Positions 14,994 through 37,418 of a stretch of DNA of 64,000 bases are shown here, one piece after another. Below the pieces are notes generated by a model that saw only the letters and a list, made by a program, of their open reading frames with translations, had not been told where the DNA came from and searched no databases. Every line of letters starts with the position of its first letter. Position 1 is the stretch's first letter. A program made the translations under genes and the position numbers. Source of the stretch: Gloeobacterales cyanobacterium (GTDB taxonomy: Bacteria; Cyanobacteriota; Cyanobacteriia; Gloeobacterales; PMM-0068); contig JBBRSB010000003.1 of the NCBI GenBank assembly GCA_038245785.1, forward strand, positions 96,001 to 160,000, in the 5' to 3' direction.

Positions 14994-15024
14994 AGTATTT
15001 TCCGTATCTTTCACGGAAAATACT
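14994..15024. promoter_or_regulatory. Perfect 12-bp inverted repeat in a divergent intergenic region (possible operator)
   Basis: AGTATTTTCCGT-N7-ACGGAAAATACT, followed by ACTCAGT-N6-ACTGAGT. Confidence 0.4.
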
Positions 15025-15781: not shown

Positions 15782-15930
15782 TAGAACCTGCACACTGTCC
15801 TCCGCAATCCCCTACAACTTGACAGCATAAATTTGATTATGAGCGATGCTTTAAAACTCTTAAATAAACTGTTGGCATGCAACATTGAGTCAAGAGCAAA
15901 GTAGGCAGCCTTGCATAGAGGATTCGGTGA

Positions 15931-16653: not shown

Positions 16654-16873
16654 ATAGGTACATACTTAACAAAGCCCACTGGTTATTTGAGATTCCCCTG
16701 TCAGAAAAGTAACTTTGAACTGTAAGCAGCTTTGCCTCCTACCCTCCAGGAAGGCTGCACCAATATCAACGGGGGCGTAGGCGGAACTCTTATTCGAGTC
16801 ACAATTAAGTTCAGTCTTTTTGCAAAAGATCTAATACAAAGAATAATTTTTTATAGATTCTCAGGAGTTCTAC

Positions 16874-17680: not shown

Positions 17681-17807
17681 GGCTATTCAGATCAGTGATG
17701 GGATGGAGTTGCTTAAAGATTCCTGTTTTAAGATTTTCAATTCGTGCGTAGATTATTAGCTTTCCTCTGTGAACCGATGATGTCTTGTTCTTCTCTCCAA
17801 AGGTCTA

Positions 17808-19235: not shown

Positions 19236-19312
19236 TTATAAAGACTAAGCCCATGCCAGAATTATGCGGCTATTTCTAGAAGTTACACGTACTGTTTAGA
19301 TTGGGAGGTTAG

Positions 19313-20782: not shown

Positions 20783-20785
20783 AAG

Positions 20786-22162
20786 ATGAGAAGCTTTATA
20801 AAAATTCTAATAAATTCTGAAAAATTGAACTTTCTCACTCTCGAGGAGTTGACATTGAAAAATCTTATACAGAAAATATCTGTTGCCTTTGCTTACATTA
20901 GTGTTTGGGAAATCATCCTTGGATTTGGCGGAGATTTTATCTCCTTTGGCCCAATAAAAATAAGAGCATTCTTGGCTGTCTTTAATGTGTTTTTGCTTAT
21001 TGTTAGCATTGTTATTGGAAGTGCAAAAGTTAAAATTCACTATTTAGTTCTAAGCTCTGTAATCTTGATTGCGTCTGTAAATTTTCTATGGACTTTCTAT
21101 GGCCTTGAGATGAACAATGAGTTTGCTATTGCCGATGGTGGCGGCTCACTCTTAAGCATTCTTTCCTGCCTTTCCATAATAATTTCAGTCCTCAATATTC
21201 AGTCGAGTAAAGATACGTTATTTAATCTGCTTCAGCTTCCTCTCCTTATATTCTTCTCATCACTATCTCTTCTATGGATTACGCAACCAATCCATCACAT
21301 AGATTTACCCTTGCTACTCGAACCTTACACTGCGGTAACTATTATTGGTGGGGGAGGTGACCTGGGGAGGTACTATTTTCCTAGTACAGTATTGCTCCCT
21401 CTCAGTGCTTTTATCTTTGCGATTTATTCTCCCAAATTTAGTGTATTAAAGTTCTATAGCTACATCACCCTCTATATCATTTCAGTTCTTGCTGTAGGTT
21501 CGCGTGGAGTTGCTCTTGGAACATTATCAATTATTGCGGCAGCTTTTATTATTAGGATTCTTTCTCTACAAAACAGACCAGCTAATCTAATGATTTTTCT
21601 TTCTCCTCTGCTTGTGGCTACTCTTATTCTTTCTCCAATACTAGCTGCAAGTTTAAAGAGCACTCGTTTCTTTGAACCAAATGCAGCGTATAGTCAACTT
21701 GCATCGGATGATACAAGATTTGAGCAGGCACCATTATTACTTGAGTCTTTCCTGGAGGAACCAATATTAGGTAGAGGTTCTGGTTATTATATTAACGGAT
21801 TTCTTAGATCTAATAATCAGCCATATCTTTATGAGCTATATTTTCTTACTCTTTTGATGAAAACAGGAATCTTAGGCTCATTCCTTTATTTCTCTGCTCT
21901 CATGGCAATTCTGATAACACCCTTTGTTAGTAAATTTAGTTATCTGCTAAGCGTTAAAATATTATATGTTATTGCATTTGTAACCACCATCTTGCAGGGT
22001 TCAAGTAATCCATTTCTGGACAGGCCATGTGGATTATTACTCCTATTTGGTCCCTGGTTAGCCATTGAACTTCTGAGAAAGTTGCCTGTAGATTATTCAA
22101 TTATTAGAAAACCAATCAGACCTAAATCACAGTCACAATTTGCAGCTCAAATTATGAGCTAA
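20786..22162 (+). CDS. Wzy-like polymerase / O-antigen ligase family membrane protein
   Basis: Multi-TM with GSRG, periplasmic loop SDDTRFEQ..PILGRG and YELYFL..LMKTGILG. Confidence 0.75.
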   Translation: MRSFIKILINSEKLNFLTLEELTLKNLIQKISVAFAYISVWEIILGFGGDFISFGPIKIRAFLAVFNVFLLIVSIVIGSAKVKIHYLVLSSVILIASVNFLWTFYGLEMNNEFAIADGGGSLLSILSCLSIIISVLNIQSSKDTLFNLLQLPLLIFFSSLSLLWITQPIHHIDLPLLLEPYTAVTIIGGGGDLGRYYFPSTVLLPLSAFIFAIYSPKFSVLKFYSYITLYIISVLAVGSRGVALGTLSIIAAAFIIRILSLQNRPANLMIFLSPLLVATLILSPILAASLKSTRFFEPNAAYSQLASDDTRFEQAPLLLESFLEEPILGRGSGYYINGFLRSNNQPYLYELYFLTLLMKTGILGSFLYFSALMAILITPFVSKFSYLLSVKILYVIAFVTTILQGSSNPFLDRPCGLLLLFGPWLAIELLRKLPVDYSIIRKPIRPKSQSQFAAQIMS

Positions 22163-22187
22163 TCATATAAAGCTCTTACGGAAGTTT

Positions 22188-24899
22188 GTGATGTTACATA
22201 ATCTATTCCGTAGCAGTGTTCTTCTATCAACACTCCTAGCTCTCCTCGTTCTTTTCCTTTATGGAAATATCGCCAGAGCGCAGACGCTTCCTGGTTTTGA
22301 CTTTAAGCAGGCTTCTGTTGTTCAATCGTGGCAACCAACGAGTGATATAGCGAATATTCAAGCAACATCACAAGGCATGCTCATTGAAATCAGCGGCAAT
22401 GATCCTTATACGTTAGGGCCTGCTCGTACGTATCCTCAAAATCTCACCCTTCGACTGCGTATCCGTCTTAAGTCCGATCAGAAGGGAGTAGGTAGAATAT
22501 TCTTCTTTACATCAGCTAAAGGGCCGAACGAAGAAGATTCAGTTTCCTTCTTGGTCCCAAAGGCAGGTGAATGGGTTGAAGCACTTGTGCCAATGCCTGC
22601 ACTTGGACCTGGGACTTCACTCCGCATTGACCCACCTGGCGTTGGAATAGGCAAGTGTCTCATTTCATCCCTAACCTTCGAGCCAAACGTTAAGTTGAAG
22701 GAACCGCAGTGGCCAAAACCAACTAAACCCCAACTAGATGACATATCCTATAGCGTCCATTCTGGCGATCTCTTACTCGTACACGAAAAGCAGAAACTTG
22801 GTAGCTTCCGAATCCAGGTCGCAAAGAAGGATATGGCTGTTGGTTTTAACCGCCCTTTAATTGGCTACATCCAAGCGGGTCAACAGCAATGGCTAAACCT
22901 AAATGAGAAGGCACAGATCAAAACTAGCCTCCAGGATAATGCCCTGGCCGTGAGAGCAGTTGTTACTGACGCTGGCGGCGCGCGTTGGGGAATTGAGCAG
23001 CGGTTCATGCAGGCAAAACTGCCCAATGCGATCGATGTGGTTACAACCGTTACAGTCAATCAGGATCGCATAGTTAGCTTTCTGCCGATGCTGGTCGTAT
23101 TGCCTGGTGTTGGGTCCTTTGGGGCAGAGAGAAACCATGGACTATTCGCTGGATTGGAGTACTTAGACAAGCCAGACATAAGTAGTTCGGATGCCGATAT
23201 CATTGGGCCGGGCAGCAAGCGTCAGTTCCCCAACACTGAGCTAATGACTTTCCCCTTAATGGCTATTCAGGCTAATGACCGTTACCTTGGCCTCATCTGG
23301 GACAAGTTCCCGAAGTTTAGTGCTGTTTTTGATTCACCTGACCGCATCTTCAAGTCCGGGGGACACCTAATGGGGGTGCTGTTTCCTGGCTCCCAGGGTA
23401 TGCACTTACGGGAGGGTAGTCTGAGTCCCTATGGCAGTGAAACGCTGGTCAAGGGAAAGCCATTAGTTTTGCGCGCGACCATTATCGGAAGTACTGGTAA
23501 GAGTGTAGTTCCCGCTGTGCAGCAGTACATTGCACTACGCGGATTGCCACGTATGCCTTCCTCGGGCATGGATAAACAAGGCTACATCTCTCTGGCCGCA
23601 GGCGGCTGGCTTGACTCGAAGATTCGAGTTGGCGATGAGTTTCGGCATGCCTACTGGCCAGAAGTAATTGATGCAAAAAGCAAGGTCGCAGATGCTCCTG
23701 TCTTTTTGAAATGGCTGGCACATGCAACAGAGGACGCGACCTTGCGCACACGCCTGCACACTCAAGAAAAGGCAACTATCGCGAAGGTTAGCCCAACAGA
23801 TTACAACACTGCAGGCATCTCGCACGTACGCTATCCTTTGCCCGCTCTCATCTATGGAAATGTTGCCGAAAATGCAGACCGCGCAGAGAAATCTGGGTGG
23901 TCTATATTAGGTCGCTTCGAACCAAATGGTACGCTCCTCTACAAACCTGGGCCTAAGGAGCAGGATTTTGGGAAGACACACTTCGCACCTGACGCAAACG
24001 GACTGACTGCCGGAGTAGTGGAAAGTCTGCTGCAAGACGCAATGTTTTCTGGTGACGAAAAACTGATCCGTGCAGGATTGCGTATGTTGCGCGCGCTCGA
24101 TAAGTTTCACGATAGTGCACCACGTGGCGCGCAGACATGGGAAGTTCCTCTTCACACACCTGATATCTTGGCTTCTGCTTACCTAGTTCGAGCCTACACG
24201 CTGGGGTATGAGCTGACAGGTGACCAACATTTCCTAAAGGAAGCGATCTATTGGGCTTGGACTGGTGTTCCCTTTATCTATCTAGATAAATTGACCTCAC
24301 AGCCTGTCGGCCCCTACTCCACCATAGCCGTCCTGGGGGCTTCTAGATGGAAGGCCCCGAATTGGATAGGTCTGCCGGTTCAGTGGTGTGGTTTAGTCTA
24401 TTCGGAAGCTCTCTACCGTCTACTTCGGTACGATTCCAAAGGTCCCTGGAAACAGATCGCAGATGGCATTACTACTTCAGGTATTCAGCAAAGCTGGCCC
24501 CACACGGAAAAAGATTTTCAGGGTCTCTTACCTGACTCCTTCAATCTACAATCCCAGAAACGCAATTTTCCAGTGATCAACCCTGGAACAGTGCAAGCGA
24601 ATGCCATTCATCTTTTGGGGGGACCAGAGATATATGACTATCGTGTATTGCGTAAAAACAGTCTAATCGTCCACGCACCAGGAACAATCTCAGAGATACA
24701 AGAGAACCCAGGCCAAGTCTCTTTTACCGTAAAAGGTGACTGGTTAGAACACTCATATAACATTCTTGTGAGCGGCTTCAAGGCTCCGCCACAGGCTCGT
24801 ACCAACGGGCAGGAAGTACAGAGTCAGTACATAGGAAAGAAGGGATATCTCATTCTCACAGCAAATAAAGATATGCGGATTGATATAAGCACAAAGTAG
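22188..24899 (+). CDS. Large secreted protein of unknown function (903 aa)
   Basis: Signal ending ARA-Q; N-terminal beta-rich module (LRIDPPG); C-terminal helical region with RGAQTWEVPLHTPDILASA. Confidence 0.8.
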   Translation: MMLHNLFRSSVLLSTLLALLVLFLYGNIARAQTLPGFDFKQASVVQSWQPTSDIANIQATSQGMLIEISGNDPYTLGPARTYPQNLTLRLRIRLKSDQKGVGRIFFFTSAKGPNEEDSVSFLVPKAGEWVEALVPMPALGPGTSLRIDPPGVGIGKCLISSLTFEPNVKLKEPQWPKPTKPQLDDISYSVHSGDLLLVHEKQKLGSFRIQVAKKDMAVGFNRPLIGYIQAGQQQWLNLNEKAQIKTSLQDNALAVRAVVTDAGGARWGIEQRFMQAKLPNAIDVVTTVTVNQDRIVSFLPMLVVLPGVGSFGAERNHGLFAGLEYLDKPDISSSDADIIGPGSKRQFPNTELMTFPLMAIQANDRYLGLIWDKFPKFSAVFDSPDRIFKSGGHLMGVLFPGSQGMHLREGSLSPYGSETLVKGKPLVLRATIIGSTGKSVVPAVQQYIALRGLPRMPSSGMDKQGYISLAAGGWLDSKIRVGDEFRHAYWPEVIDAKSKVADAPVFLKWLAHATEDATLRTRLHTQEKATIAKVSPTDYNTAGISHVRYPLPALIYGNVAENADRAEKSGWSILGRFEPNGTLLYKPGPKEQDFGKTHFAPDANGLTAGVVESLLQDAMFSGDEKLIRAGLRMLRALDKFHDSAPRGAQTWEVPLHTPDILASAYLVRAYTLGYELTGDQHFLKEAIYWAWTGVPFIYLDKLTSQPVGPYSTIAVLGASRWKAPNWIGLPVQWCGLVYSEALYRLLRYDSKGPWKQIADGITTSGIQQSWPHTEKDFQGLLPDSFNLQSQKRNFPVINPGTVQANAIHLLGGPEIYDYRVLRKNSLIVHAPGTISEIQENPGQVSFTVKGDWLEHSYNILVSGFKAPPQARTNGQEVQSQYIGKKGYLILTANKDMRIDISTK

Positions 24900-25012
24900 A
24901 GAAAAGTGCACTTCCTCAGGTTGCTTAGTATGTCTCATTGGGTATCGACAAGCTGTATTCAATGCCAATGAATATTTAATGCCTCGAATGGGGTTATTTT
25001 TAGGAAGGATAA

Positions 25013-25753
25013 ATGAAGTTTTCAGTGTGTATAGCTGTTTATAACGGTGAGGAGTATTTAAAGCAACAGCTTGTTTCCATTTTAGAGCAACTAAATATTG
25101 ATGACGAAGTTATAGTAGTTAACGATAAATCTTCAGACGACTCGATGAATATAATTAATTCGCTCTGCGATAAAAGAATTACAGTGATTAACAATGAAAC
25201 TAATCTCGGAGTGGTTCGCTCGTTCGAAAAAGCTCTTAACCAAACATCAGGTGACATTATATTTTTGTCAGATCAGGATGATATTTGGATGCCCGGAAAA
25301 ATAGAAGTGATTAGCAAGTATATGATGGAATCTCAATGCCGTGCTGTTGTATCTGATGCTTTGGTAATTGATGGGCAAGAAGAAGTCATATGCGATTCAT
25401 ATTTTACGCTGCGGCAATCTGGTCCTGGCATTTGGAAAAACTTTTATCGAAATAGTTATATTGGCTGCTGTATGGCTATCCGTTCAGATGTTAAACCTTT
25501 TATCTTACCTTTCCCTAAATCTATTCCCATGCATGATGCATGGATTGGAATGGTCTGTGACCTTCTTGGTGAAGTTAAATTTTTGCCTAAACAACTTGTT
25601 GCCTATCGAAGGCATTTAGCAAATCAGAGTGAACTACAGGGAAAAGACTGGAATAAGATGATACATAAAAGATTCATATGGCTTAGATTAATGGCTGTTG
25701 AATTGCCAAAGCTATGGTTGAAAATAATTTTAAACAAAATTATCTGTGCTTGA
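25013..25753 (+). CDS. GT2 glycosyltransferase (rhamnosyltransferase-like)
   Basis: YNGEEYL, FLSDQDDIW, MHDAW and YRRH motifs. Confidence 0.9.
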   Translation: MKFSVCIAVYNGEEYLKQQLVSILEQLNIDDEVIVVNDKSSDDSMNIINSLCDKRITVINNETNLGVVRSFEKALNQTSGDIIFLSDQDDIWMPGKIEVISKYMMESQCRAVVSDALVIDGQEEVICDSYFTLRQSGPGIWKNFYRNSYIGCCMAIRSDVKPFILPFPKSIPMHDAWIGMVCDLLGEVKFLPKQLVAYRRHLANQSELQGKDWNKMIHKRFIWLRLMAVELPKLWLKIILNKIICA

Positions 25754-25919
25754 CATGATGTCCAGCTATCTTTCATCTCTGAAGCTTATTTCTCCGAAAT
25801 AATGATTAGTTTTCTAATTCAAAATCAGATATGAAATCTAAGAATTCTTGCCTAAAAAGGTTCAGAAGTAATTTGCTGTTTGCCCTAAATAGTCTCTATC
25901 TCTAGCACTTCTAGGAGTC

Positions 25920-26831
25920 ATGATGCTTGATGTCGCCGTAATTATCCCTACTTTAAATGGTGTGCAAGATCTAGAACAAGTTTTACCCCGTTTGACAGAG
26001 GCAATAGATCCAAGCCGAATTTGGATTATTGATTCAGCTTCTAAAGATAAAACGGTTGAACTTAGCAAGCAGTACCGAGTTAATATATATCCCATTGAAC
26101 ATGGAAGTTTTAATCATGGAGGAACCCGCAATTTAGGGCGTTCTTTAGTTAATGCGGAGATCTTAATCTATTTAACCCAGGATGCAATTCCAGCAGGTCC
26201 GGATTTTTTAGAGAAGCTGGTCGAACCTTTTTCAGATTCCGCCGTAGCCTTGGCATACGGACGACAGCTACCCCGTATCGGGGCTGGTCCTCTTGAGGCA
26301 TTTCCCAGACTTTTTAACTACTCAGATACGAACTTAGTGAAAAGTAAAGCTGATATCGCTCAACTTGGTATTAAGACCTTCTTCTGCTCTGACTCTTTTT
26401 GTGCCTATCGGACCCATGCATGGGATGAAGTTGGAGGATTTCCTGAAAGAACTTTAACCTGGGAGGACCAGCATATTGCGGCACGCTTAATTGCTAAAGG
26501 GTACAAAATTGCCTACGTTCCTAATGCACAGGTCTACCATTCCCACAGTTATACATTGAAGGAAGAGTTTCAGAGATACTTTGATACAGGTTCCTTTTTG
26601 AAAAAAGAAACTTGGATACGCGAAATGGCAGGTAATGCAGAGGGGGAAGGAATGCGCTTTCTCAAAAAACAGATTGAGTACCTAATCACAGTACAGAAAA
26701 CTTATCTTATCCCCTACTCTCTTATTGCAACGATTGTAAAGTATATGGGATATAGAATGGGTTTGTTAGAACCTAACTTACCCATTCATTGGAAGCGGAA
26801 GTTAAGCCAGCAAAGTTATTATTGGCAATAA
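25920..26831 (+). CDS. GT2 glycosyltransferase (RfbN-like rhamnosyltransferase)
   Basis: FNHGGTRNLG, LTQDA, AYGRQLP and VYHSH motifs. Confidence 0.88.
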   Translation: MMLDVAVIIPTLNGVQDLEQVLPRLTEAIDPSRIWIIDSASKDKTVELSKQYRVNIYPIEHGSFNHGGTRNLGRSLVNAEILIYLTQDAIPAGPDFLEKLVEPFSDSAVALAYGRQLPRIGAGPLEAFPRLFNYSDTNLVKSKADIAQLGIKTFFCSDSFCAYRTHAWDEVGGFPERTLTWEDQHIAARLIAKGYKIAYVPNAQVYHSHSYTLKEEFQRYFDTGSFLKKETWIREMAGNAEGEGMRFLKKQIEYLITVQKTYLIPYSLIATIVKYMGYRMGLLEPNLPIHWKRKLSQQSYYWQ

Positions 26832-27000: not shown

Positions 27001-29355
27001 TTAGAAAACCTTTACTTCGCCGACAAAGAAGTATTCACCTTTTGTTTTAGCAACTCGTACGTACCGATAAGAATTACCAGAAACGACATCAGCTGTCAGA
27101 GTAGTGTCAAACCTGAGAGGTGTGCTGCCTTGAGTATATATAACTTTGTAATTAGTAAATGTTGGATCATTTGAAACTCTAATTTCGAAATTTTGTCTTG
27201 TAACTGGTTGATCATAAAAGTGTCGAGTAGTCAATTCGATACTTCTGAGGTTTTTCATTTCACCCAAATCAACCTGCCACCAAGGTAGAGTATCCTCCTC
27301 AAGCGGAGACCATCCTCCATAGGCATCATTATTGATTGCATCATCATTTGCCGTTTCAGGAAGATATGCAGAATTAAAAGATGAAGAGGCGGTGGCAGAT
27401 TTTTTGAGCGCAAGGTTTGGGAAAATAGGTAATAAGCTATTCTTAATATCTTGCTGCGCTGTTGACTGTATGCCTGCGGTATCAATAATATCCTGTACTT
27501 CATGGGGAATAGATTGCAAAGATAAGGTGGTATTATTCTGCAATGTATTTCTCGAGATACTCTCACCTCCTGATCCTGTGTCAAACGAGTTATAATAGAG
27601 GTCTTCTCCATTAGAAAAATTGTTCTCTATAGTATTGCCAAATATGGCATCATTCCAAATAAAGAGCCAATTATGTTTGTAATTAATCACAACATTATTT
27701 GAGATAGTAAATTCGCTACTGCCTAGATCAGGATAGATTGCTCCTCCATTAGTGGGTGAATTATATTGATTATAAATATAGTTTTTACTTATGACCGATT
27801 CAGGTTGAAGACCTGTTGTAAAGATTGCTCCTCCATCATTAAGAAAATTCATGAAATTATGAATTTTATTGCCTTGAATGATGTTGTTTGTAGCAGGACT
27901 TAGAATAGTGCCATCAAAACTAATTCCTACAAAAATACCTGCGTAAGGTATATCGGTAATTTCGTTGTGGATTATACGTGTATGGTCAGCGTAGCCAACA
28001 AAAATGGCAGCAGCATCATGATATTCTTGAGCTATCTTGGTAATGTAGTTATCTACGACTAAATTATTACTGACATATTTTCTTGTATCCAAGTCTTGCA
28101 CAAATTTCCAATCTGAGTTGCCAAGCTGTATTGCGCTGCCTGATATATCATCAAATCTATTATTTTCAATTGTATTGTTTTGACTGCCATCATCAAAATC
28201 TAAGGCTGCACTGCTTAAATGGCTAAAGATATTATGTTTAAAACTAATGTTTTTTGCATAGATAAAAGATATATTTCCGGGTGATTTAGAACCTATGGTT
28301 CTCCCAGATGGCTCTGTTTGAACATAAAAGCCTGTTCCTAATGATGCATAGCCATCAGATGAGTTAGGGTAGTACCAAGTCCCATACTTGAAATTCAGAT
28401 CTTGAAAAACAATGTTGTGCACTGGATTATCTACTTGGCCAGAACCAACAATCAATTTATCTAATATTGGTACAACGGCTTCTGTTTTGGCTAAATTTTC
28501 ATAGGGATGGGGTTTGTAGTAAATACATTCGTCCTTTTTGTTGTAGTACCATTCGCCAGGAGTATCCAAAAGTTCATAAGCGTTCTCTAGCCATGAAGGA
28601 TTTAAGATAGGGCGATCTTTTTGCACTGAAAGATGGAGAGAGTTACTGAAACATTGCTGGTCCATTGTAATTACCCTACCTACAATGCTAGACACTCCAC
28701 AGCGGAACGATTTAAAGAAATCAGTAGATACTATTTCTACATCGCTGACATTTTTCCACTTTTGCAGGTTCAAATCCGTAGTTGTATATCCTGTCTCTGT
28801 TCTGGTAAACCCTGTTGGGTCATCAAGGCTTCTCGCTCGGGTAGCTCTTAGCTCTCCATTATAGAATTCGCGAGGATAAGTAGTTTTGCCAAACCAGACT
28901 CGATAAATGTTTTTACTTACATCAAACAAAGACCAACGTCCAAGTCTTCTACCTCCAGAGAGCGTAACTTTAGCTCCAGGTTCTGCCCTGTAGATAATGT
29001 TATAGCCATTACTTCCTGAATCTTCAGGGCCCAACGTTAAAGGTCGATTGAGTTGATAGGTTCCGCCTTTTAGAATAACAACAATGTCTCCTATCATATT
29101 GCTATTTACGCTGCGAACGGCTGTGGCGGCTTTTTGAATCGTTTTAAATGGTTTAGCACTCGTTCCGGGCGCGGTATCAGAACCATTGGTAGCAACATAA
29201 AAATAGGTGGTTTCTGCTGCAGATGCCTTGGAAATAAGACCTTGACAGAAGATTGGAAGTATACTCAAGGAGCCTGACAGTAAGAGTTTAAGAGATGTAG
29301 ATATTGTTTTAGAAATGGTACTTTGCTGATTATGCAATGTTGCTAATGAACCCAT
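27001..29355 (-). CDS. Secreted right-handed beta-helix protein with C-terminal F5/8 type C (discoidin) domain (GH141-like)
   Basis: YVATNGSD..PGT..PFKTIQKA, LENAYELLDTPGEWY, Asn-ladder repeats, DGGAI; C-terminal NLALKK..ASS and PWWQVDLG. Confidence 0.8.
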   Translation of the reverse strand: MGSLATLHNQQSTISKTISTSLKLLLSGSLSILPIFCQGLISKASAAETTYFYVATNGSDTAPGTSAKPFKTIQKAATAVRSVNSNMIGDIVVILKGGTYQLNRPLTLGPEDSGSNGYNIIYRAEPGAKVTLSGGRRLGRWSLFDVSKNIYRVWFGKTTYPREFYNGELRATRARSLDDPTGFTRTETGYTTTDLNLQKWKNVSDVEIVSTDFFKSFRCGVSSIVGRVITMDQQCFSNSLHLSVQKDRPILNPSWLENAYELLDTPGEWYYNKKDECIYYKPHPYENLAKTEAVVPILDKLIVGSGQVDNPVHNIVFQDLNFKYGTWYYPNSSDGYASLGTGFYVQTEPSGRTIGSKSPGNISFIYAKNISFKHNIFSHLSSAALDFDDGSQNNTIENNRFDDISGSAIQLGNSDWKFVQDLDTRKYVSNNLVVDNYITKIAQEYHDAAAIFVGYADHTRIIHNEITDIPYAGIFVGISFDGTILSPATNNIIQGNKIHNFMNFLNDGGAIFTTGLQPESVISKNYIYNQYNSPTNGGAIYPDLGSSEFTISNNVVINYKHNWLFIWNDAIFGNTIENNFSNGEDLYYNSFDTGSGGESISRNTLQNNTTLSLQSIPHEVQDIIDTAGIQSTAQQDIKNSLLPIFPNLALKKSATASSSFNSAYLPETANDDAINNDAYGGWSPLEEDTLPWWQVDLGEMKNLRSIELTTRHFYDQPVTRQNFEIRVSNDPTFTNYKVIYTQGSTPLRFDTTLTADVVSGNSYRYVRVAKTKGEYFFVGEVKVF

Positions 29356-29864: not shown

Positions 29865-30197
29865 ATGTACGAGAATCTAGTTGGAATAGATATGCCTTCA
29901 AAATTTGCATTTTCCCTGTCTTCAACGGTGGTAGCTACTTCGGATCAAGTTTCCTCTGATTTAGCAGGAGAAGTAGTCATACTCGGTCTCAGTGCTGGTA
30001 TTTACTATGGTCTCAATGAAGTGGGAGCTAGCATCTGGAATTTGATTCAGCAGTCTAAGACCATCCAAGAAATTCAGGATGCTCTGCTGCAAGAATATGA
30101 CGTAGAAGCATCCCAATTAGAACAAGATATTTTCTCATTACTTTCAGAATTATCCGCTGTAGGACTGATCGAAATAAAAGATGAAGCTATTGTTTAA
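29865..30197 (+). CDS. Lasso peptide B1 / PqqD-family RiPP recognition element
   Basis: DLAGEVVIL...YYGLNEVGASIWNLI...L..EYDV...GLI. Alternative ATG at 29892. Confidence 0.92.
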   Translation: MYENLVGIDMPSKFAFSLSSTVVATSDQVSSDLAGEVVILGLSAGIYYGLNEVGASIWNLIQQSKTIQEIQDALLQEYDVEASQLEQDIFSLLSELSAVGLIEIKDEAIV

Positions 30198-30624
30198 GGT
30201 CCTGCACCTGCATAACAACGATCGCAACTTCCTTTTTAAAACTTTTATCTTGCTTAGCTTAGTGAGGTTGGGTCTGTGGCTGTTGCCCTTTCAAAAATTG
30301 CTGCACCTTTTAGGAAAGCTCGGTCACCCATCTCCTAAACAGCTGTTGAAATCCATTCCCTTAGATCGAATTGTTTGGGCCGTGAATCTGAATAGTTCTT
30401 ATACCCTGGGCAACGTCCAGTGTTTACCTCGGGCTTTGACAACGCAAGTACTCATGCGTAGCTATGGCTATGCGCCCCAACTGCGCATTGGAGTGACCAA
30501 GGGAGCACAAGGAAATCTAGAAGCCCATGCTTGGGTCGAGAACCAAGGACAGGTGGTGATTGGCTATCTCAGAGACTTTTCGCGATTTACGCCTCTGCCC
30601 TCTTTTAAAGGAAGCAAACTGTGA
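30181..30624 (+). CDS. Lasso peptide B2 leader peptidase (transglutaminase-like)
   Basis: CLPRAL, LRIGV and AHAWVE catalytic Cys/His motifs. Confidence 0.92.
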   Translation: MKLLFKVLHLHNNDRNFLFKTFILLSLVRLGLWLLPFQKLLHLLGKLGHPSPKQLLKSIPLDRIVWAVNLNSSYTLGNVQCLPRALTTQVLMRSYGYAPQLRIGVTKGAQGNLEAHAWVENQGQVVIGYLRDFSRFTPLPSFKGSKL

Positions 30625-32612
30625 GTGGCATTCTCGGTATTCGCTACCTGGATGGTCGTCCATTGGGCCGTGAGTACCTAGAACGCATGGTTGATATTCT
30701 TGCCCATCGTGGACCCGATGGAGCCGCTATTTGGTGTGAAGGTTCTATCGGTCTCGGGCATCGTATGCTCTGGACCACGCCTGAGTCTCTGTTGGAAAAA
30801 CAACCCTTGGCCGATCCGTCTAGCGAACTGACTATTACAGCAGACGCTCGTATTGATAACCGAGATGAACTAATCCATGACCTAAATCTTGATTCCTATC
30901 CGTCGGAAAAAATCACAGATAGCCAATTGATTTTGGCGGCTTACCATCAGTGGGGAGAAGACTGTCCCGATAAGCTTTTGGGTGATTTTGCCTTTGCTAT
31001 CTGGGATGGTCGCAAGCAACAGCTATTTTGTGCCAGAGATCATTTTGGCATTAAGCCTTTCTACTACTACGTGTCCAATCAAACCTTCGCTTTTGCCAGC
31101 GAAATTAAAGCCCTCTTTTGCCTGCCAGAAGTCCCGCAGCAGATCAGTGAGGTCAGGATTGGCGACTACTTAGCGTCCATGTTCCATGATGGGACGAGCA
31201 CCTCCTATCAGGATATCTTCCGACTTCCTCCCGCTCATCGCATGACCGTCCGTACTAGTGGCATCCAGCTACAACCTTATTGGGCTCTGAATCCCGATCG
31301 TGAAATACGTCTAAGCTCGGATGAAGCGTATGCAGTCAAGTTTCGAGAAATTTTTACAGAAGCCGTACGCTGTCGTCTGCGGAGTGCCTTTCCGATTGGT
31401 TCCACCTTAAGCGGCGGACTCGATTCTTCCTCCATTACCTGTGTGGCAAGAGGGCTCTTGTCCGAAAAGGGAGCGCAACCCCTACACACCTTCTCAGCCG
31501 TTTTTGACAAGCTCACGGAATGCGACGAACGCAGCTACATTAACGCTGTAGTTGCTCAGGGTGGGCTCGAACCACACTACATCCAGGCAGACCAGATCAG
31601 CCCTTTGAAAGATATAGAGCAAATGTTTTGGCATCAGGATGAAGCCTTTTATGCTCCTAACTGGTGTATGGGATGGGCCTTAAATAAGGCCGCGCATCAG
31701 CAAAAAGTTCGTGTTCTCTTAGATGGCTTCGATGGCGATACGACCGTTTCCCACGGGTATGGATACTTAAGTGAATTAGCCCGCGCCGGACGTTGGCTCA
31801 CTTTGATCAAGGAAGTCAAGGGCCTCGCTCATGCGCTGGATGAATCCTTCCCTCGGTGGCTTTGGAGCTATGTAAAGCACTTCGGCATCAAAACAACGGT
31901 CTCTAGATATCGGGTTCTTCGCCTACTTCATAGGATAGGATCTTTGCTAACGTCATTTTTCCGTCGCCCAAAGAGTCAACTTTCATCGTCAGCGGATTGG
32001 AGCGACCTTTTAGACCAAAAATTTGTTGCGCGGATCGGTATAGAGGAACGCCACCAGGCTTGGAAAAAAGTTCAAGGCCACTTAGGTTTGGACGAAAGAG
32101 AGCGCCACTATCGGAATATTGCGACCCAAGGCTTACCTCAATTTGCAGCCGAGACGATGGACAAGTCTATGGCAGCCTTTTCTCTTGAACCCCGTTATCC
32201 TTTTTGGGATAAGCGGTTGGTCGAGTTCTGCCTTGCTTTGCCCCCGGAACAAAAGCTGCACCTCGGATGGGACCGAGTCGTAATGCGCCGTGCGATGACC
32301 GATATTCTGCCTGTAGAAGTACAGTGGCGCAGAGGCAAAACAGACTTTTCATCGAATCTTGCTCATGGATTGCTGTTCTTTGAGAAAGAGTCTTTAGACC
32401 AGTTAATCCCGCATGGGTTAGGGAATCTTAAACAGTATCTAAATATCCCTGTCCTAGAGAAGATCTATCAACGATTTTTATCCTCAAAATCTCAGGAAGC
32501 AGGTATAGACGGGCGCAATATCTGGATAGTTGTTTCCCTTGCTTTGTGGCTGCAGCATAGAGCCCAAAGGAGACCTGAAAAAGTTAAGACAAAGGAGCTG
32601 AATCCAATGTGA
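30621..32612 (+). CDS. Lasso peptide cyclase (C protein, asparagine synthetase-like)
   Basis: SGGLDSS ATP motif, RDHFGIKP, DGFDGD. N-terminal Ser instead of the glutaminase Cys; flanked by B1/B2 and precursors. Confidence 0.92.
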   Translation: MSGILGIRYLDGRPLGREYLERMVDILAHRGPDGAAIWCEGSIGLGHRMLWTTPESLLEKQPLADPSSELTITADARIDNRDELIHDLNLDSYPSEKITDSQLILAAYHQWGEDCPDKLLGDFAFAIWDGRKQQLFCARDHFGIKPFYYYVSNQTFAFASEIKALFCLPEVPQQISEVRIGDYLASMFHDGTSTSYQDIFRLPPAHRMTVRTSGIQLQPYWALNPDREIRLSSDEAYAVKFREIFTEAVRCRLRSAFPIGSTLSGGLDSSSITCVARGLLSEKGAQPLHTFSAVFDKLTECDERSYINAVVAQGGLEPHYIQADQISPLKDIEQMFWHQDEAFYAPNWCMGWALNKAAHQQKVRVLLDGFDGDTTVSHGYGYLSELARAGRWLTLIKEVKGLAHALDESFPRWLWSYVKHFGIKTTVSRYRVLRLLHRIGSLLTSFFRRPKSQLSSSADWSDLLDQKFVARIGIEERHQAWKKVQGHLGLDERERHYRNIATQGLPQFAAETMDKSMAAFSLEPRYPFWDKRLVEFCLALPPEQKLHLGWDRVVMRRAMTDILPVEVQWRRGKTDFSSNLAHGLLFFEKESLDQLIPHGLGNLKQYLNIPVLEKIYQRFLSSKSQEAGIDGRNIWIVVSLALWLQHRAQRRPEKVKTKELNPM

Positions 32613-32642
32613 TAAGAAACTGAATACTTTTTCTGATAGTGA

Positions 32643-32697
32643 AGCTCATTGTCTTCTTGGCTGTTCTTTCAAGAGCATCTAAGAAAACAGCGAGCCT
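32643..32697 (+). promoter_or_regulatory. Conserved 5' stem-loop upstream of lasso precursor A1
   Basis: gctcattgtcttcttgg pairs with ctaagaaaacagcgagc (with G-U pairs); the same arms recur at 33015-33062. Confidence 0.6.
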
Positions 32698-32783
32698 AGT
32701 TGTCACCTATATTTAGGACCTTCTAGCTGGCTGTATCCCTGGCTCTCCACAGAGCTAATTAGCAAATCAATCAAGGAGAAACT

Positions 32784-32930
32784 ATGGCTTTTCAAAAGAA
32801 GTCTTACCTCAAACCTGAGCTAACCGTTCATGGTAATGTCGAAGTCCTAACCAAAGGAGGAAGTAGCGGTGGAAGCACAGACGCTTTCTTTCCGGTAGGC
32901 ACTCCGAAGGGTGGGGTGACCTTCTCCTAG
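32784..32930 (+). CDS. Lasso precursor A1: MAFQKKSYLKPELTVHGNVEVLTK|GGSSGGSTDAFFPVGTPKGGVTFS
   Basis: Manually translated (48 aa). AAGGAG RBS; leader YxxPxL..G and Thr(-2); core Gly1, Asp9, C-terminal Ser. Confidence 0.93.
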   Translation: MAFQKKSYLKPELTVHGNVEVLTKGGSSGGSTDAFFPVGTPKGGVTFS

Positions 32931-32954
32931 TGGAGTGAGCCAGACTAGATAAAT

Positions 32955-32991
32955 CAAGGATATCTAGAAGATAACAGTCTAGGTATCCTTG
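32955..32991 (+). terminator. 3' hairpin after precursor A1 (terminator or stabiliser)
   Basis: caaggatatctaga-N9-tctaggtatccttg; no clear U-tract. Confidence 0.5.
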
Positions 32992-33014
32992 CGAAATAGC
33001 TTGTCCTAATCATG

Positions 33015-33062
33015 AAGCTCCTTGTCTTCTTGGCTTGTTGCCGCTAAGAAAACAGCGAGCTT
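33015..33062 (+). promoter_or_regulatory. Conserved 5' stem-loop upstream of lasso precursor A2
   Basis: aagctccttgtcttcttggc...gctaagaaaacagcgagctt; same arms as copy 1 with a different loop. Confidence 0.6.
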
Positions 33063-33133
33063 AGTTGCCCCCGTATCCTGTGGCTTCTAGTTAACTGTAT
33101 CCACCCCCATATCAAATCGATCAAGGAAAAACC

Positions 33134-33280
33134 ATGGCTTTTCAAAAAAAGTCTTATCTCAAGCCTGAGTTAACCGTTCATGGCAATGTTGAAGTCCTGA
33201 CCAAGGGCTCATCCATTGGCAACTTTACGGATAGAGACTTTCCCACAGGGACTCCTCGAGGAGAGATAAGTTTCTCGTGA
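33134..33280 (+). CDS. Lasso precursor A2: MAFQKKSYLKPELTVHGNVEVLTK|GSSIGNFTDRDFPTGTPRGEISFS
   Basis: Manually translated (48 aa). AAGGA RBS; leader identical to A1; core Gly1, Asp9, C-terminal Ser. Confidence 0.93.
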   Translation: MAFQKKSYLKPELTVHGNVEVLTKGSSIGNFTDRDFPTGTPRGEISFS

Positions 33281-33322
33281 TAACTTTCTCCCTCTACGAG
33301 CCTAGCAATCCAAGCTAGGGAT

Positions 33323-33427
33323 ATTCTGGGGGTTCTGAGCTCAAAGTCCCCCAAAGTTGGGGGATTAGGGGGCGGTTCCAAGATCTGTATACCCCGTAGC
33401 CTTTTGAAGGGGGGAGCGGGGGGATCT
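33323..33427. repeat. Short dispersed GC-rich palindromic element (CCCCCAA..TGGGGG family)
   Basis: aaagtcccccaaagttgggggattagggggc; similar to 60245-60276. Confidence 0.65.
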
Positions 33428-33477
33428 TTGCAGGAAGTTTGGTCTAGTAAGTCTGGGTTTTAAGGAAAGTCGAAAGA

Positions 33478-34395
33478 ATGTACCACTACATCGCTTATGG
33501 TCTAAATATTTCCTCTGAGCTGTTGCTGCCAGAGTTAAAAATTTCATCAGTTGTGGAAGCAGATGTAGTTATCCAGTTGGGGAAAGTTAATTGGTTGCCA
33601 CCCGATCCTTGTCCCTCATGGAAGTACTTTCATTTTGACGGTGATACAGCTTACTTGTATTGGGATATTGTCGGCAAATTCCTAGTTCGTTCGGGTAGAG
33701 AGATTACTATCGAGCTGATTGAAGGAGTGGACGAAGGAGTCGTTCGTCTTCCCCTATTAGGGGCAGTCTTAGCGATGGTGCTTCATCAGCGCCAGTATTT
33801 GTTGCTCCATGGCAGTGCTGTTGCTATCAAAGAGCATGCCGTGATCTTTGCCGGAGCCTCAGGGCATGGTAAATCGACGATGGCCGCAACCCTCTATGGA
33901 CGGGGACATAGACTGATGGCTGATGATGTCTCTGCCATCAACCTTGAAAAGATAAGCAGACCGATGTTAATTCCAGGTTTTCCTCAAATTAAACTCTGGC
34001 CAGAAGCAGTCACGGCTGCCTTAGGGGATGATCCAGAAGCGCTTAAGAGAGTTCATCCAGACCTTGAAAAACGAGCCCGCCCCATGGCTAATGGTTTCTT
34101 GCAGGTACCGCTTCCCCTTGAGCGAATCTATCTACTCAGTGAAGGGCCAAGCGTGCATATCAAACCGTTGAAACCGCAAGAGGCGATCGCTAAACTAATT
34201 GGCAATTCTTTTATTCCAATGCTAGTGGGAGAAAAATTTATTCAAAGTAAGGGCACGGGTCTGCACATTTCCCAATGTGCGAATCTTGTCAAAAATGTTC
34301 CTATTTATACACTTGAGCGACCCTGTTCTCTTGAGCTGTTGTCAGATATAGCGCACTTGATAGAAGAAGATTTAGCGGCTCCCGTACAAATTTAA
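33478..34395 (+). CDS. HPr kinase-like lasso peptide kinase
   Basis: LHGSAV, Walker A GASGHGKST and LMADD motifs. Confidence 0.88.
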   Translation: MYHYIAYGLNISSELLLPELKISSVVEADVVIQLGKVNWLPPDPCPSWKYFHFDGDTAYLYWDIVGKFLVRSGREITIELIEGVDEGVVRLPLLGAVLAMVLHQRQYLLLHGSAVAIKEHAVIFAGASGHGKSTMAATLYGRGHRLMADDVSAINLEKISRPMLIPGFPQIKLWPEAVTAALGDDPEALKRVHPDLEKRARPMANGFLQVPLPLERIYLLSEGPSVHIKPLKPQEAIAKLIGNSFIPMLVGEKFIQSKGTGLHISQCANLVKNVPIYTLERPCSLELLSDIAHLIEEDLAAPVQI

Positions 34396-34398
34396 ACT

Positions 34399-36216
34399 AT
34401 GCGCCTAGACCAATTCTTAAAAAGTAAAATTCAAAAAGCTTCACGCTTTCTGCCTGCGCTCCGCTTAGTTTGGCAAAGCAGCCCTGGCTGGACGATCGCA
34501 CGCGTCATAATTTTAATCATTCTGGGAATCTTGCCTCTAATTTCGATTTATCTGGCCAAACTTATCGTAGATACGGTAACTATGGGTCTGATGGCGACGG
34601 ACAAAGCAGCTACTTTTTCTGAAATTTTAAAGTTACTGCTGTTAGCAGGAGTTGTCACAGTTATTAATGGTCTCTGTACATCCCTAAGCGAATTTGTGAA
34701 TACAGCCCATTCCCTACGGGTGACTGACTACATGCAGGGCATTATGCATGCTAAGTCAATTGAAGCAGACCTCGAATACTATGAGAATGCTAAATACTTC
34801 GATGCCCTACAGCGAGCGCAACAAGAAGCTCCCTACCGCCCGCCCCAAATTCTGAATCGTTTGGCCCAGGTTGGCCAGAACGGTATTTCTCTAATCACGA
34901 TGGTGGGTTTATTAAGCTCACTCCATTGGGGCATTATCGGGGTGCTCATAGTTGCGGCCCTGCCTGCTGTTTTTGTGCGCGTACATCAGTCTCGGATTAT
35001 GTATCAGTGGCAGCGGAAAAGAACGGGGATGGATCGGCAATCCATGTATTTAGGTTTTATGCTGACCGGAGACCTGTTTGCCAAAGAAATTCGACTATTT
35101 GGTCTAGGCTCTTTCTTTAGTGCATGGTATCTCCGTATTCGCCAACAGCTCTACGAAGAAAGATTAGACATTTCTAAAAGAAAAGCACTCGCAAATTTTC
35201 TAGCTCAGGGCTTTGCGGGCATTTTAATCTTTGCTATCTATAGCTTCATCATCTATCAAACGCTGCAAGGGGTTCTCCGTTTAGGAGATCTTGTTCTTTA
35301 TTACCAGGCTTTGCAACGAGGCCAGCTCAATATCAATGGACTTCTGACGGGCGTATCAGGTCTTTATGAAGATAATCTGTTCCTGACAAATCTATACGAG
35401 TTTCTAGACCTCAAGCCCACTATTGTGGATCCTACAGTTTCCAAGCCATTTCCCGAAACTATAAAGACAGGTATTGTCTTTAATCAGGTTAGTTTTCAAT
35501 ATTCCAACAGCACTCGTCAAGCACTCAGCAATATCAATCTTTGCATTGAACCAGGAAAAACTATTGCTTTGGTGGGAGAAAATGGCTGTGGAAAAACAAC
35601 CTTAATTAAACTTCTTTGCCGTCTGTACGACCCAACTTCTGGCAGTATCACCATTGATGGAATTGATATCCGTGAGTTCAAAATAGCCGATTTGCGTCGT
35701 CAAGTGGGTGTGATTTTTCAAGACTATGCGAAGTATAACCTCACTGCTTTTGAGAATATCTGGCTAGGGAACGTTGAGGTTCCGCGAGAGGACGAAAAAA
35801 TCATAGCAGCGGCCTATCGTTCTGGAGCGAATGAAGTGATTCAGCAGTTACCGCAAGGTTATGACACCGTGTTGGGTAAGTTATTCGACCAGGGAGAAGA
35901 GCTCAGCATCGGTCAGTGGCAAAAAATAGCTTTGGCCAGGGCCTTTCTGCGCTCCTCACAGCTAATTATTTTAGATGAGCCAACCAGCGCCATGGATCCA
36001 AAGGCGGAATACGAAGTCTTCAACCAATTTCACCAGTTGATTAAAGACCAGGCGGCTATTCTGATTACCCATCGTTTATCAACAGTAAAAATGGCAGACT
36101 GCATTTATGTCATGGATCAAGGTTCCATCGTCGAATCGGGCACCCATGATCAACTGATGCAGCAAAGAGGCTCCTATGCCCATTTGTTTGAAACCCAAGC
36201 CCAAAACTATCGGTGA
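34399..36216 (+). CDS. ABC exporter (TMD + NBD)
   Basis: AKEIRLF, GENGCGKTT, LSIGQWQK and LILDEPT motifs. Confidence 0.92.
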   Translation: MRLDQFLKSKIQKASRFLPALRLVWQSSPGWTIARVIILIILGILPLISIYLAKLIVDTVTMGLMATDKAATFSEILKLLLLAGVVTVINGLCTSLSEFVNTAHSLRVTDYMQGIMHAKSIEADLEYYENAKYFDALQRAQQEAPYRPPQILNRLAQVGQNGISLITMVGLLSSLHWGIIGVLIVAALPAVFVRVHQSRIMYQWQRKRTGMDRQSMYLGFMLTGDLFAKEIRLFGLGSFFSAWYLRIRQQLYEERLDISKRKALANFLAQGFAGILIFAIYSFIIYQTLQGVLRLGDLVLYYQALQRGQLNINGLLTGVSGLYEDNLFLTNLYEFLDLKPTIVDPTVSKPFPETIKTGIVFNQVSFQYSNSTRQALSNINLCIEPGKTIALVGENGCGKTTLIKLLCRLYDPTSGSITIDGIDIREFKIADLRRQVGVIFQDYAKYNLTAFENIWLGNVEVPREDEKIIAAAYRSGANEVIQQLPQGYDTVLGKLFDQGEELSIGQWQKIALARAFLRSSQLIILDEPTSAMDPKAEYEVFNQFHQLIKDQAAILITHRLSTVKMADCIYVMDQGSIVESGTHDQLMQQRGSYAHLFETQAQNYR

Positions 36217-37418
36217 GTAGTCTGATGAGCTCCCTAACCCAGTCTCCGCCTAAAGTCTCCGCGACGGCTATGCGTCCAGAAATCGAGCTGTTGCTCTGCG
36301 CGGCCCGCACCTACCTCGATTCTGCAACCGCTCAATGTATGAGCACGCTGCTCCAGGAAGATATGGATTGGACCTATCTAATCCACCTTGCAACCTGTCA
36401 CAAAGTGATGCCGCTCCTGTACCAGAGTTTAAGCATCATCGGTCTAGAAGCTGTCCCTCCAGCTATTCTCGCTCAACTGCACGCCCACTTCCGTCGCAAT
36501 ACGATGCAGAACCTGTTCTTAACCCAAGAACTAATCAAGCTCTTGGATCAGTTCAAGGAAAAGGACATCCCTGTTATTCCCTACAAAGGCCCCGTTCTAG
36601 CAGCTTTTGCCTACGGCAAGCTGTCCCTTCGTCAGAGTGGGGACTTAGACCTCCTCGTTTCTGCCGAAAATTATCCGCAGGCGAAGGCATTGCTCCTCGA
36701 ACGCGGTTATCAAATGCTGCTCGACAGCAAACATGAGAAGGCTCATCTGCAAGCTCAGCTATGGAATGACAAGCTGAGGGTCAGCGTAGACCTGCATTAT
36801 GGAATTCCGCCCAAGGAACTTCGACTCAACCCGGAGCGATTCTGGGAAAGCCTGCAGACCTTTTCTTTGAATGACAAAAAAATAGAAGTGCTCTCTCCGG
36901 AAGCCCACCTGCTGCTCCTGTGCGTGGATGGACACAAGGAAAGTTGGAATCAGTTGTTTAAACTCTGCGGTGTGGCCGCCATCATTCACGCCTATCCCAC
37001 GATGGATTGGGAAAAGCTCATCGCTTGGGCTGAACAGTTGAGGATGAAGCACATTCTCTGTATGGCTCTATTGCTCGCGAACGACTTGTTAGGCACCACC
37101 CTCCCTGAAGAAGTCTTGCAAAACGCCAAAGCCAGCTCTGTGAGGAGATTCCTGGTCAAGCATTGGCGTGAATATCTCTTCTCTGAGCCAGAGAGTCAGA
37201 CGGATGTTGCTCAAAAGAAACTTTTCCACCCGCAGACCATAGCACCCCTCTACCGCCTGTCTATGGCTGACCTCAAGAATATGATGATGCCAACGGAGGT
37301 CGACCAAGCATGGCTTCCCCTCCCGCCTGCTATCTCTTTTCTCTACTATCTGCTGCGACCGATCCGCTTAGTTTGGAAGTATGGACCCGTGTTTATCGAC
37401 CGTTCGGCGGCATCTTAG
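36213..37418 (+). CDS. Nucleotidyltransferase family protein (lasso-cluster type)
   Basis: YKGPVLA..AYG...R.SGDLDLLV and VDLH motifs; start overlaps the ABC stop (GTGA). Confidence 0.85.
   Translation: MSSLMSSLTQSPPKVSATAMRPEIELLLCAARTYLDSATAQCMSTLLQEDMDWTYLIHLATCHKVMPLLYQSLSIIGLEAVPPAILAQLHAHFRRNTMQNLFLTQELIKLLDQFKEKDIPVIPYKGPVLAAFAYGKLSLRQSGDLDLLVSAENYPQAKALLLERGYQMLLDSKHEKAHLQAQLWNDKLRVSVDLHYGIPPKELRLNPERFWESLQTFSLNDKKIEVLSPEAHLLLLCVDGHKESWNQLFKLCGVAAIIHAYPTMDWEKLIAWAEQLRMKHILCMALLLANDLLGTTLPEEVLQNAKASSVRRFLVKHWREYLFSEPESQTDVAQKKLFHPQTIAPLYRLSMADLKNMMMPTEVDQAWLPLPPAISFLYYLLRPIRLVWKYGPVFIDRSAAS

Follow-up and report, generated by a model that had tools for sequence, protein, structure and literature searches.

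A predicted kinase- and nucleotidyltransferase-bearing lasso peptide operon beside a separate polysaccharide locus in a Gloeobacterales cyanobacterium

Genes of the lasso peptide cluster

We analyzed a stretch of 64,000 nucleotides (nt) from a Gloeobacterales cyanobacterium (GenBank assembly GCA_038245785.1, contig JBBRSB010000003.1, positions 96,001 to 160,000; hereafter, the window) that contains a lasso peptide gene cluster at window positions 29865-37418. The cluster consists of eight open reading frames (ORFs), all on the plus strand, in the order B1-B2-C-A1-A2-K-D-N. A preliminary description, made from the letters alone, had listed the same eight co-oriented genes, and both the ORF coordinates and the Pfam and NCBIfam matches bear it out. 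B1 (29865..30197) encodes a 110-amino-acid (aa) PqqD-type recognition element (RRE) for ribosomally synthesized peptides with post-translational modifications (RiPPs), matching Pfam PqqD at 67.7 bits (cutoff 23.4) and NCBIfam lasso_PqqD_Bac at 74.7 bits, slightly below its cutoff of 80. B2 (30181..30624) encodes a 147-aa lasso leader peptidase (NCBIfam lasso_biosyn_B2, 111.5 bits, cutoff 33; Pfam Transglut_core3), and C (30621..32612) a 663-aa ATP-dependent lasso cyclase (NCBIfam NF033535 lass_lactam_cya, 949.3 bits, cutoff 525; Pfam Asn_synthase and GATase). Two 48-aa lasso precursors follow, A1 (32784..32930; MAFQKKSYLKPELTVHGNVEVLTKGGSSGGSTDAFFPVGTPKGGVTFS) and A2 (33134..33280; MAFQKKSYLKPELTVHGNVEVLTKGSSIGNFTDRDFPTGTPRGEISFS), which match the NCBIfam leader domain NF033521 at 19.9 and 20.6 bits, respectively (cutoff 19). 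The last three genes encode K (33478..34395), a 305-aa HprK-like peptide kinase (Pfam Hpr_kinase_C, 37.4 bits, cutoff 33.3); D (34399..36216), a 605-aa fused permease/ATPase exporter of the ATP-binding cassette (ABC) type (Pfam ABC_tran, above cutoff), which comes closest in NCBIfam to MsbA-type exporters, with every score under the respective cutoff; and N (36213..37418), a 401-aa nucleotidyltransferase (Pfam NTP_transf_5, PF14907, 199.7 bits, cutoff 31.2). The Pfam calls for B1, B2, C, K, D, and N all exceed the curated cutoffs.

The enzymes characteristic of a split-B lasso system (a PqqD-type RRE, a transglutaminase-fold peptidase, and an Asn-synthetase-like cyclase) are all present, and catalytic motifs are kept in all core enzymes (B2, C, K, D, and N). 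B2 has Cys81 and His116, C has the PP-loop SGGLDS at residues 264-269, and D has a Walker A motif at residues 393-400. K has the features of a paeninodin-type HprK-like kinase, namely a P-loop, GASGHGKS, at residues 126-133 and an Asp-Asp pair at residues 149-150. N supplies the hallmark of the pseudomycoidin type, an NTP_transf_5 enzyme with a DxD motif encoded in the operon; its Asp144 and Asp146, within the motif GDLD, are invariant in 17/17 aligned homologues. The genes are tightly packed, with overlaps of 17 nt (B1/B2), 4 nt (B2/C), and 4 nt (D/N), and 3 nt between K and D; the gaps around the two precursor genes measure 171, 203, and 197 nt. A promoter and terminator scan of positions 29300-38500 gave no signal, with 7 promoter-like sites (11.5 in shuffles) and 9 terminator-like sites (9.2 in shuffles).

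Precursors, tailoring enzymes and the predicted products

A1 and A2 share an identical 24-aa leader (residues 1-24), followed by a 24-aa core (residues 25-48) that has diverged between them. Both contain Thr23-Lys24 followed by Gly25, and in core numbering both carry Gly1, Asp9, and, as the last residue, Ser24, in agreement with what the preliminary description had claimed for the C-terminus. Thr at -2, a Gly core start, and Asp at core position 9 are what is expected of a lasso precursor, and both peptides have them; their scores against the cyanobacterial precursor model NF033528 (lasso_cyano), 26 bits for A1 and 24 bits for A2, lie below its cutoff of 33. Because Asp9 is the sole acidic residue of the A1 core, we assign the A1 ring to Gly1-Asp9. 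An AAGGAG Shine-Dalgarno sequence lies 5' of A1. We note that A1 and A2 sit within a tandem duplication of ~350 nt (window 32613-33312), in which the 5' region and the leader codons are kept and the core codons have strongly diverged. A search of 5.8 billion proteins returned nine relatives (clusters) of A1/A2, all nine of them 48 aa long, with Asp at core position 9 and the ending (T/S)FS; the C-terminal Ser is therefore conserved in the family, and it is present in the 11 closest precursors when A1 and A2 are counted with these nine. Judged by these relatives, the A1/A2 precursors are a small, sharply conserved family of their own. Two further loci whose N belongs to the same clade as the window N, L050 and L095, also have precursors ending in Ser.

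A kinase and a nucleoside triphosphate (NTP) transferase are found together in the pseudomycoidin (psm) cluster of Bacillus pseudomycoides DSM 12442, which is reported to comprise C, A, an HprK-family kinase (PsmK), B1, B2, an 'uncharacterized NTP transferase' (PsmN), and an exporter (PMC6993621). According to that account, the bare lasso alone accumulates without PsmK, PsmN is required for the addition of one or two hexoses to phosphorylated pseudomycoidin, a PsmN D134A/D136A mutant abolishes hexosylation, and a PsmK D158A/D159A mutant serves as an inactive control. PsmN is described there as having no glycosyltransferase motif, and its authors left it possible that a host glycosyltransferase is the source of the hexose; a review gives the same findings and leaves undecided whether PsmN is a glycosyltransferase itself (PMC9266682). 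HprK kinases and NTP transferases have been called typical of paeninodin-like lasso clusters (PMC6993621, PMC13381572), and the NTP transferase domain of paeninodin-like clusters and of clusters for linear polyphosphorylated peptides (LPPs) is given as NTP_transf_5, the Pfam name of PF14907 (PMC13381572, supplementary file 2). Among the lasso clusters of rumen Firmicutes, one survey counts 85% with kinases and 36% with glycosyltransferases (PMC7533575). Cyanobacteria have been called an under-explored source of lasso peptides (Tietz et al. 2017, as quoted in PMC7533575), and one paper on metagenome-assembled genomes (MAGs) describes a cyanobacterial lasso cluster in silico, in passages that mention neither a kinase nor a nucleotidyltransferase (PMC9332814). 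Our literature search, which did not extend to subscription journals, found no characterized cyanobacterial lasso peptide.

We assigned N to the PsmN type by their common Pfam family and fold. An AlphaFold model of N, built on 17 sequences, has a mean predicted local distance difference test (pLDDT) score of 81.7. Its fold search returned the Pol-beta nucleotidyltransferases MenT1, LnuA, and ANT(2'')-Ia (5cfs, 4xje) as weak matches (best E ~5e-4, 13-21% identity), with FKRP, which has the same fold and transfers phospho-alditols, lower in the list; 5cfs and 4xje are also the structures named for PsmN (PMC6993621). As far as the model goes, these matches support a Pol-beta fold and a metal-binding DxD in N, and they point to no specific substrate. 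Homologues of N are common (746 clusters at E ≤1e-10); in Microcystis, Nostoc, Cylindrospermum, Okeania, and others, their only name is 'nucleotidyltransferase family protein', and near relatives are 86-91% identical. PF14907 has also been noted near phosphonate genes (PMC8942020), a setting without bearing on the role of N considered here. In a quick IQ-TREE tree, the N genes of L050, L095, and L057 form a supported clade with that of the window. The genome holds a second N-like gene (contig C11, 26% identity), with no glycosyltransferase (GT)-type gene within 40 kb of it.

Two side observations concern the surroundings of N. In Nitrospirota, Planctomycetota, and a deltaproteobacterial MAG (L056:8051-9560, L090:7812-9265, L112:5787-7240, L097:9690-10879, L084:65-1652), the gene immediately upstream of N encodes a PqqD-like RRE, and a second RRE is found upstream of N in one cyanobacterial lasso cluster (L037:7260-8480, genome G284); this placement suggests that N is guided to leader-bearing peptides. 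In the window, N is followed immediately by a 268-aa ORF on the minus strand (37435-38241) that matches nothing in Pfam or NCBIfam and has no homologue next to any of the related clusters.

Based on the gene set, motifs, and precursors, we read the cluster, with a probability of roughly 80%, as a self-contained operon for two predicted class-II-type lasso peptides of the paeninodin/pseudomycoidin kind, set apart from the polysaccharide genes next to it. In the pathway we propose, B1 would bind the common 24-residue leader and B2 would cleave after Lys24. C would then activate the Asp9 side chain and join it to the amine of core Gly1, closing a 9-residue ring through which the 15-residue tail would be threaded. 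K would phosphorylate the C-terminal Ser at core position 24, probably on the precursor, and N, with its predicted Pol-beta fold and its translational coupling to D, would modify the phospho-Ser further, the outcome for pseudomycoidin being one or two hexoses. D would export the product. The most likely outcome is thus two lasso peptides of 24 residues, each with a Gly1-Asp9 ring, a phosphate on Ser24, and a further modification through N.

By its genes, the cluster is an uncharacterized cyanobacterial member of a kind known from Bacillus relatives. The preliminary description had proposed such a kinase/nucleotidyltransferase lasso type, and the proposal holds up: the motifs are intact, the C-terminal Ser recurs in all nine database relatives, N is an NTP_transf_5 protein, and the literature searched contains no characterized cyanobacterial lasso product. 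Like psm, it has split B1/B2, a cyclase, an HprK-type kinase, an ABC exporter, and an NTP transferase with a catalytic DxD, and Asp144/Asp146 of N match the D134/D136 DxD of PsmN (PMC6993621). It differs in gene order, as psmN lies between psmB2 and psmD whereas the window order is B1-B2-C-A-A-K-D-N, as well as in phylum and in having two precursors. Pseudomycoidin closes its ring from Ala1 to Glu, whereas the window core begins with Gly1 and is predicted to close on Asp9; the psm precursor is phosphorylated on its C-terminal residue and then hexosylated, whereas here that chemistry is predicted from the genes (PMC6993621). The paeninodin (pade) cluster of Paenibacillus dendritiformis C454 is likewise a kinase-bearing lasso cluster, and its kinase phosphorylates the C-terminal Ser of the precursor (PMC6993621, PMC7533575, PMC9266682), but it is described as having no nucleotidyltransferase gene (PMC6993621), unlike the window with its N. 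LPP clusters share an RRE, a kinase resembling HprK, an NTP_transf_5 enzyme, and an MsbA-like exporter; they are described with a signal-peptidase-like protease and no cyclase, where the window has B2 and C (PMC13381572). The davasins and their enzyme IgtG offer another lasso peptide glycosylated on Ser by a dedicated enzyme, but there a true glycosyltransferase encoded in the cluster acts directly on a Ser of the mature lasso, and the window operon has the kinase/nucleotidyltransferase pair in place of a GT gene (PMC11912497).

Related loci and the polysaccharide genes next door

The cyclase family is patchy in the phylum. It occurs in 23 of the 401 genomes sampled, including that of the window (G000), and was not found in two same-genus genomes (94% and 97% complete) or in eleven same-order genomes searched. 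The B1-B2-C-A-K-D core is present in each of the ten best related cyanobacterial loci, with B1 upstream of B2 and K after the precursors in every case. N is present in G002, G284, G116, G250, G242, G302, and G344, and weakly so in G194:C144; the flanks retrieved for six lasso loci contained no N (G162, G144 with two loci, G044, G035, and G306). We left G032 and G194:C49 out of this count, as their contigs end there. The closest locus compared is in G162 (cyclase 64% identical), and its contig is also the best of four loci from a metagenome scan; the genome scan may omit records very near the window. We note that D falls into two classes in the related loci, ~64-72% or ~39-42% identical to the window D, independently of cyclase similarity (G044, G035, G032, and G306 have D at 67-69% identity but C at 47-50%), which suggests that modules have been exchanged between clusters.

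The nearest named locus in this cyanobacterial lasso family (NF033535/NF033528) is that of Calothrix sp. PCC 7716 (L062; AP025018.1, 7059608-7080783), which has the same gene set. Its cyclase is 66%, kinase 67%, B1 57%, and B2 51% identical to the window proteins, and its precursor belongs to the A1/A2 family, with the core ...DRDFPDGTPRGDLTFS. For the exporter and N, however, identity to the window proteins falls to 39% and 38%, respectively; unlike in the window, N lies 2 kb beyond D, the precursor has six extra C-terminal residues, and there are no GT genes nearby.

Next to the window cluster, and outside it, lie a Wzx/Wzy-type polysaccharide gene locus (56..26831, plus strand; Pfam) and, at its end, a gene for a beta-helix/F5_F8 type C protein (27001..29355, minus strand; Pfam). 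That these are polysaccharide genes, as the preliminary description had it, is well supported: 18 of the 22 ORFs of at least 100 aa between 56 and 29355 carry carbohydrate-type Pfam domains (GT4 x2, GT2 x4, Wzx-type x2, Acyl_transf_3 x2, Bac_transf x2, Alg14, GT28_C, GH79_C, FkbM, Wzy_C, and the one beta-helix/F5_F8 protein). The region encodes two Wzx-type flippases, one Wzy, two priming transferases, and eight GT-type proteins, and of the 33 GT-type gene segments detected in the 5.0-Mb genome it holds 13; it is the largest GT locus there. One 106-aa ORF within it (15461-15781) matches just the N-terminal 90 positions of the GT2 profile and is probably a truncated glycosyltransferase gene. 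The earlier wording, that the cluster sits directly beside these genes, is right in that the cluster adjoins the locus, but the gene that touches it is the minus-strand beta-helix gene, which is divergent from B1 and 509 nt away from it; the last plus-strand GT2 gene ends at 26831. Because an opposite-strand gene and a 509-nt gap intervene, the polysaccharide locus is a transcription unit separate from the lasso cluster, and peptide production most likely does not depend on its position there. We found no homologue of the beta-helix gene beside any related lasso cluster examined, and no homologues of the window polysaccharide genes in the flanks retrieved for G162 or next to L062, L050, L095, or L057. 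Contigs from three other metagenome studies keep the arrangement, bridging the beta-helix gene and B1 (X2 record 20) or GT2 and the beta-helix gene (X4 record 27). As these are close kin (~88-97% identical), they show descent rather than function and are not independent support for a functional link.

We then surveyed N homologues for neighboring GT genes. The best 80 of 127 confirmed N-homologue loci were probed with the 14 window GT-type proteins (tblastn, E <1e-8), and counts were restricted to the 63 loci that extend 8 kb or more downstream of N, the 17 shorter ones being dropped. We used two backgrounds: (i) random 10-kb stretches of the window genome, and (ii) 120 evenly spaced windows on three 6-6.8-Mb chromosomes (G144, G306, and G242) from the family holding most of the matches. 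At least one GT-type gene lay within 10 kb downstream of N in 23/63 loci (10/20 of those bearing a cyclase), compared with 4.3% of the G000 stretches and 3/120 background windows. The corresponding figures were 17/63 (7/20), 1.5%, and 0/120 for at least two such genes and 10/63 (4/20), 0.8%, and 0/120 for at least three. After single-linkage collapse of N, a GT neighbor was kept in 11 of 34 clusters at 60% identity and in 7 of 20 at 50%. The probe method undercounts GT genes, as in L120, where it gave 1 match and Pfam gave 6 GT genes plus an FkbM methyltransferase. Cyanobacterial PF14907 genes are strongly enriched beside glycosyltransferase loci, a result we did not expect. A synteny survey for polysaccharide genes, as proposed in the preliminary description, divides: there are none beside the closest relatives (G162, L062, L050, L095, and L057), and GT loci are enriched beside PF14907 genes at large.

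The co-location takes three forms. In one, identified by Pfam, a lasso cluster with N is followed by a convergent Wzy-type GT4/GT2 locus (L066 and L116, Nostocales; L120, Elainellales). In another, a Nostocales N stands alone between Wzc-like genes (Wzz and P-loop domains) and a GT2/GT4/Wzy locus, as in L071:10004-11143 (neighbors at 6936-9155 and 11204-20763, by Pfam) and, by probes, in L070, L072, L073, L081, and L123. No RRE, kinase, peptidase, or cyclase was detected around these N genes, and they suggest that the PF14907 family has a peptide-independent role in glycan assembly. The remaining form is a cyclase-less operon in the order B1, GT4, two or three precursors, K, GT2, NAD-epimerase, B2, D, N, as in Nostoc linckia z4 (L104:2262-11236) and about a dozen relatives (L058, L083, L098, L099, L102, L103, L106-L108, L113, and L124). 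Its precursors have a lasso-type leader and Ser/Thr/Gly-rich cores with no Asp or Glu, so that no macrolactam can form, and a linear phospho-glyco peptide is the probable product. Two Nostocales N clades have the same GT4 orthologue next to N (62-85% identity), which makes these a single inherited arrangement rather than independent events. We considered a conserved, dedicated GT partner of N and rejected it: the Nostocales GT4 is at most 32% identical to the Elainellales GT4 and 23-29% identical to the window GT4s, and apart from a priming transferase at 44% identity, no window GT probe has an orthologue-level match beside N.

Competing explanations and meaning

Several findings count against a self-contained operon acting on a C-terminal Ser. 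Macrolactam, threading, phosphate, and any additional adduct are predictions from sequence. Only one of the three G162 precursors (L030:16575-17308) ends in TFS; the other two end in TFSGTF, three residues past it, and the Calothrix precursor continues for six residues after TFS. Since TFS is not always terminal in the closest relatives, K may not need a free C-terminal Ser. In kinase-bearing cyanobacterial lasso loci, many precursors have another last residue; across 20 N-bearing loci, only 8 of 26 candidates end in Ser. N is an optional module, given the six related lasso loci lacking it. At random, only 2.3% of genome positions would have a GT-type gene within 5 kb on one side, and by chance the cluster would lie next to the genome's largest GT locus in a few per cent of cases; the enrichment of PF14907 genes beside GT loci likewise argues against mere coincidence, although accessory loci that cluster in flexible genome regions may be another source of the co-location.

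These last points favor a functional neighborhood, in which the phospho-Ser made by K, perhaps nucleotide-activated by N, would receive sugars from glycosyltransferases that the adjoining Wzx/Wzy locus encodes, or the peptide would be joined to the exported polysaccharide, yielding a glycan-linked surface component. Beyond the downstream GT genes (23/63 loci against 3/120 background windows; 11/34 after collapse), it can draw on N genes that stand in Wzc/GT/Wzy loci without lasso genes (L070-L073, L081, and L123), on Nostoc L104, whose operon combines K and N with genes for GT2, GT4, and an NAD-epimerase, and on PsmN itself, reported without a glycosyltransferase motif and possibly served by a host enzyme (PMC6993621). 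GT-type flank genes also occur in 3/8 N-bearing and 0/6 N-less lasso loci of the phylum sample, but these are too few to test, and the contrast is not significant alone. In the window, however, the polysaccharide genes lie at the B1 end rather than beside N, behind an opposite-strand gene, and the cluster has its own ABC exporter. The window N clade and the closest cyclase relatives have no such neighbor, the GT genes beside N elsewhere are not orthologous to those of the window (GT4s 23-29%; any probe at most 44%), the two N clusters with a common GT4 (62-85%) reduce to one inherited arrangement, and the near-relative contigs that keep the adjacency show common descent only. We consider this neighborhood unlikely. 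Slightly less probable still is a specific form of it, in which the K/N pair would turn Ser24 into an activated phospho-handle (by analogy to CDP-alcohol donors, for example, a nucleoside diphosphate peptide), to which outside enzymes, here those of the Wzx/Wzy locus, would add sugars or by which they would couple the peptide through a phosphodiester to exported polysaccharide.

An even fainter prospect is that the tailoring differs altogether: K might target another Ser/Thr or an internal TFS, N might leave a nucleoside monophosphate on a peptide or non-peptide substrate, or the cluster might be silent. The residues past TFS in the G162 and Calothrix precursors would fit, as would LppK, which is reported to phosphorylate an internal Ser3 (PMC13381572), the N homologues that occur without any peptide genes, and the closest solved folds to N, which are small-molecule and tRNA nucleotidyltransferases. 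Yet the C-terminal Ser is kept in the 11 closest precursors and in those of L050 and L095, and K and N share an operon with their motifs intact.

We therefore return to the self-contained operon with a separate polysaccharide locus. A working link to this particular locus, which the preliminary description had suggested as a possibility, is not supported: the locus is a divergent unit that adjoins the operon at its wrong end, the closest independent relatives (G162, L062, L050, L095, and L057) lack the adjacency, the GT genes are not orthologous, and the cluster has a dedicated exporter. We found no evidence for attachment to a polymer, and nothing identifies the polymer as the sheath material that had also been envisaged. 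It is nonetheless plausible that enzymes from genes outside the operon add sugar to the phospho-Ser, because PF14907 genes are enriched beside GT loci.

If the Ser24 handle were real, these lasso peptides would be glycan-linked envelope components rather than free antibiotics, and PF14907 enzymes would link phospho-peptides and glycan assembly more generally. On the reading we prefer, the two predicted 24-residue peptides would be the first examples for the phylum, as no cyanobacterial lasso peptide has been isolated in the literature searched. To a specialist, the cluster itself is ordinary, and the family-level co-location of N with glycosyltransferases is the notable part. Whether a PsmN-type enzyme is a new kind of glycosyltransferase or feeds another enzyme was left undecided by its authors (PMC6993621). 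The co-location of cyanobacterial N homologues with GT loci, be it beside lasso clusters, inside cyclase-less peptide operons, or with N on its own, favors cooperation with true glycosyltransferases and points to genomes in which this could be tested.

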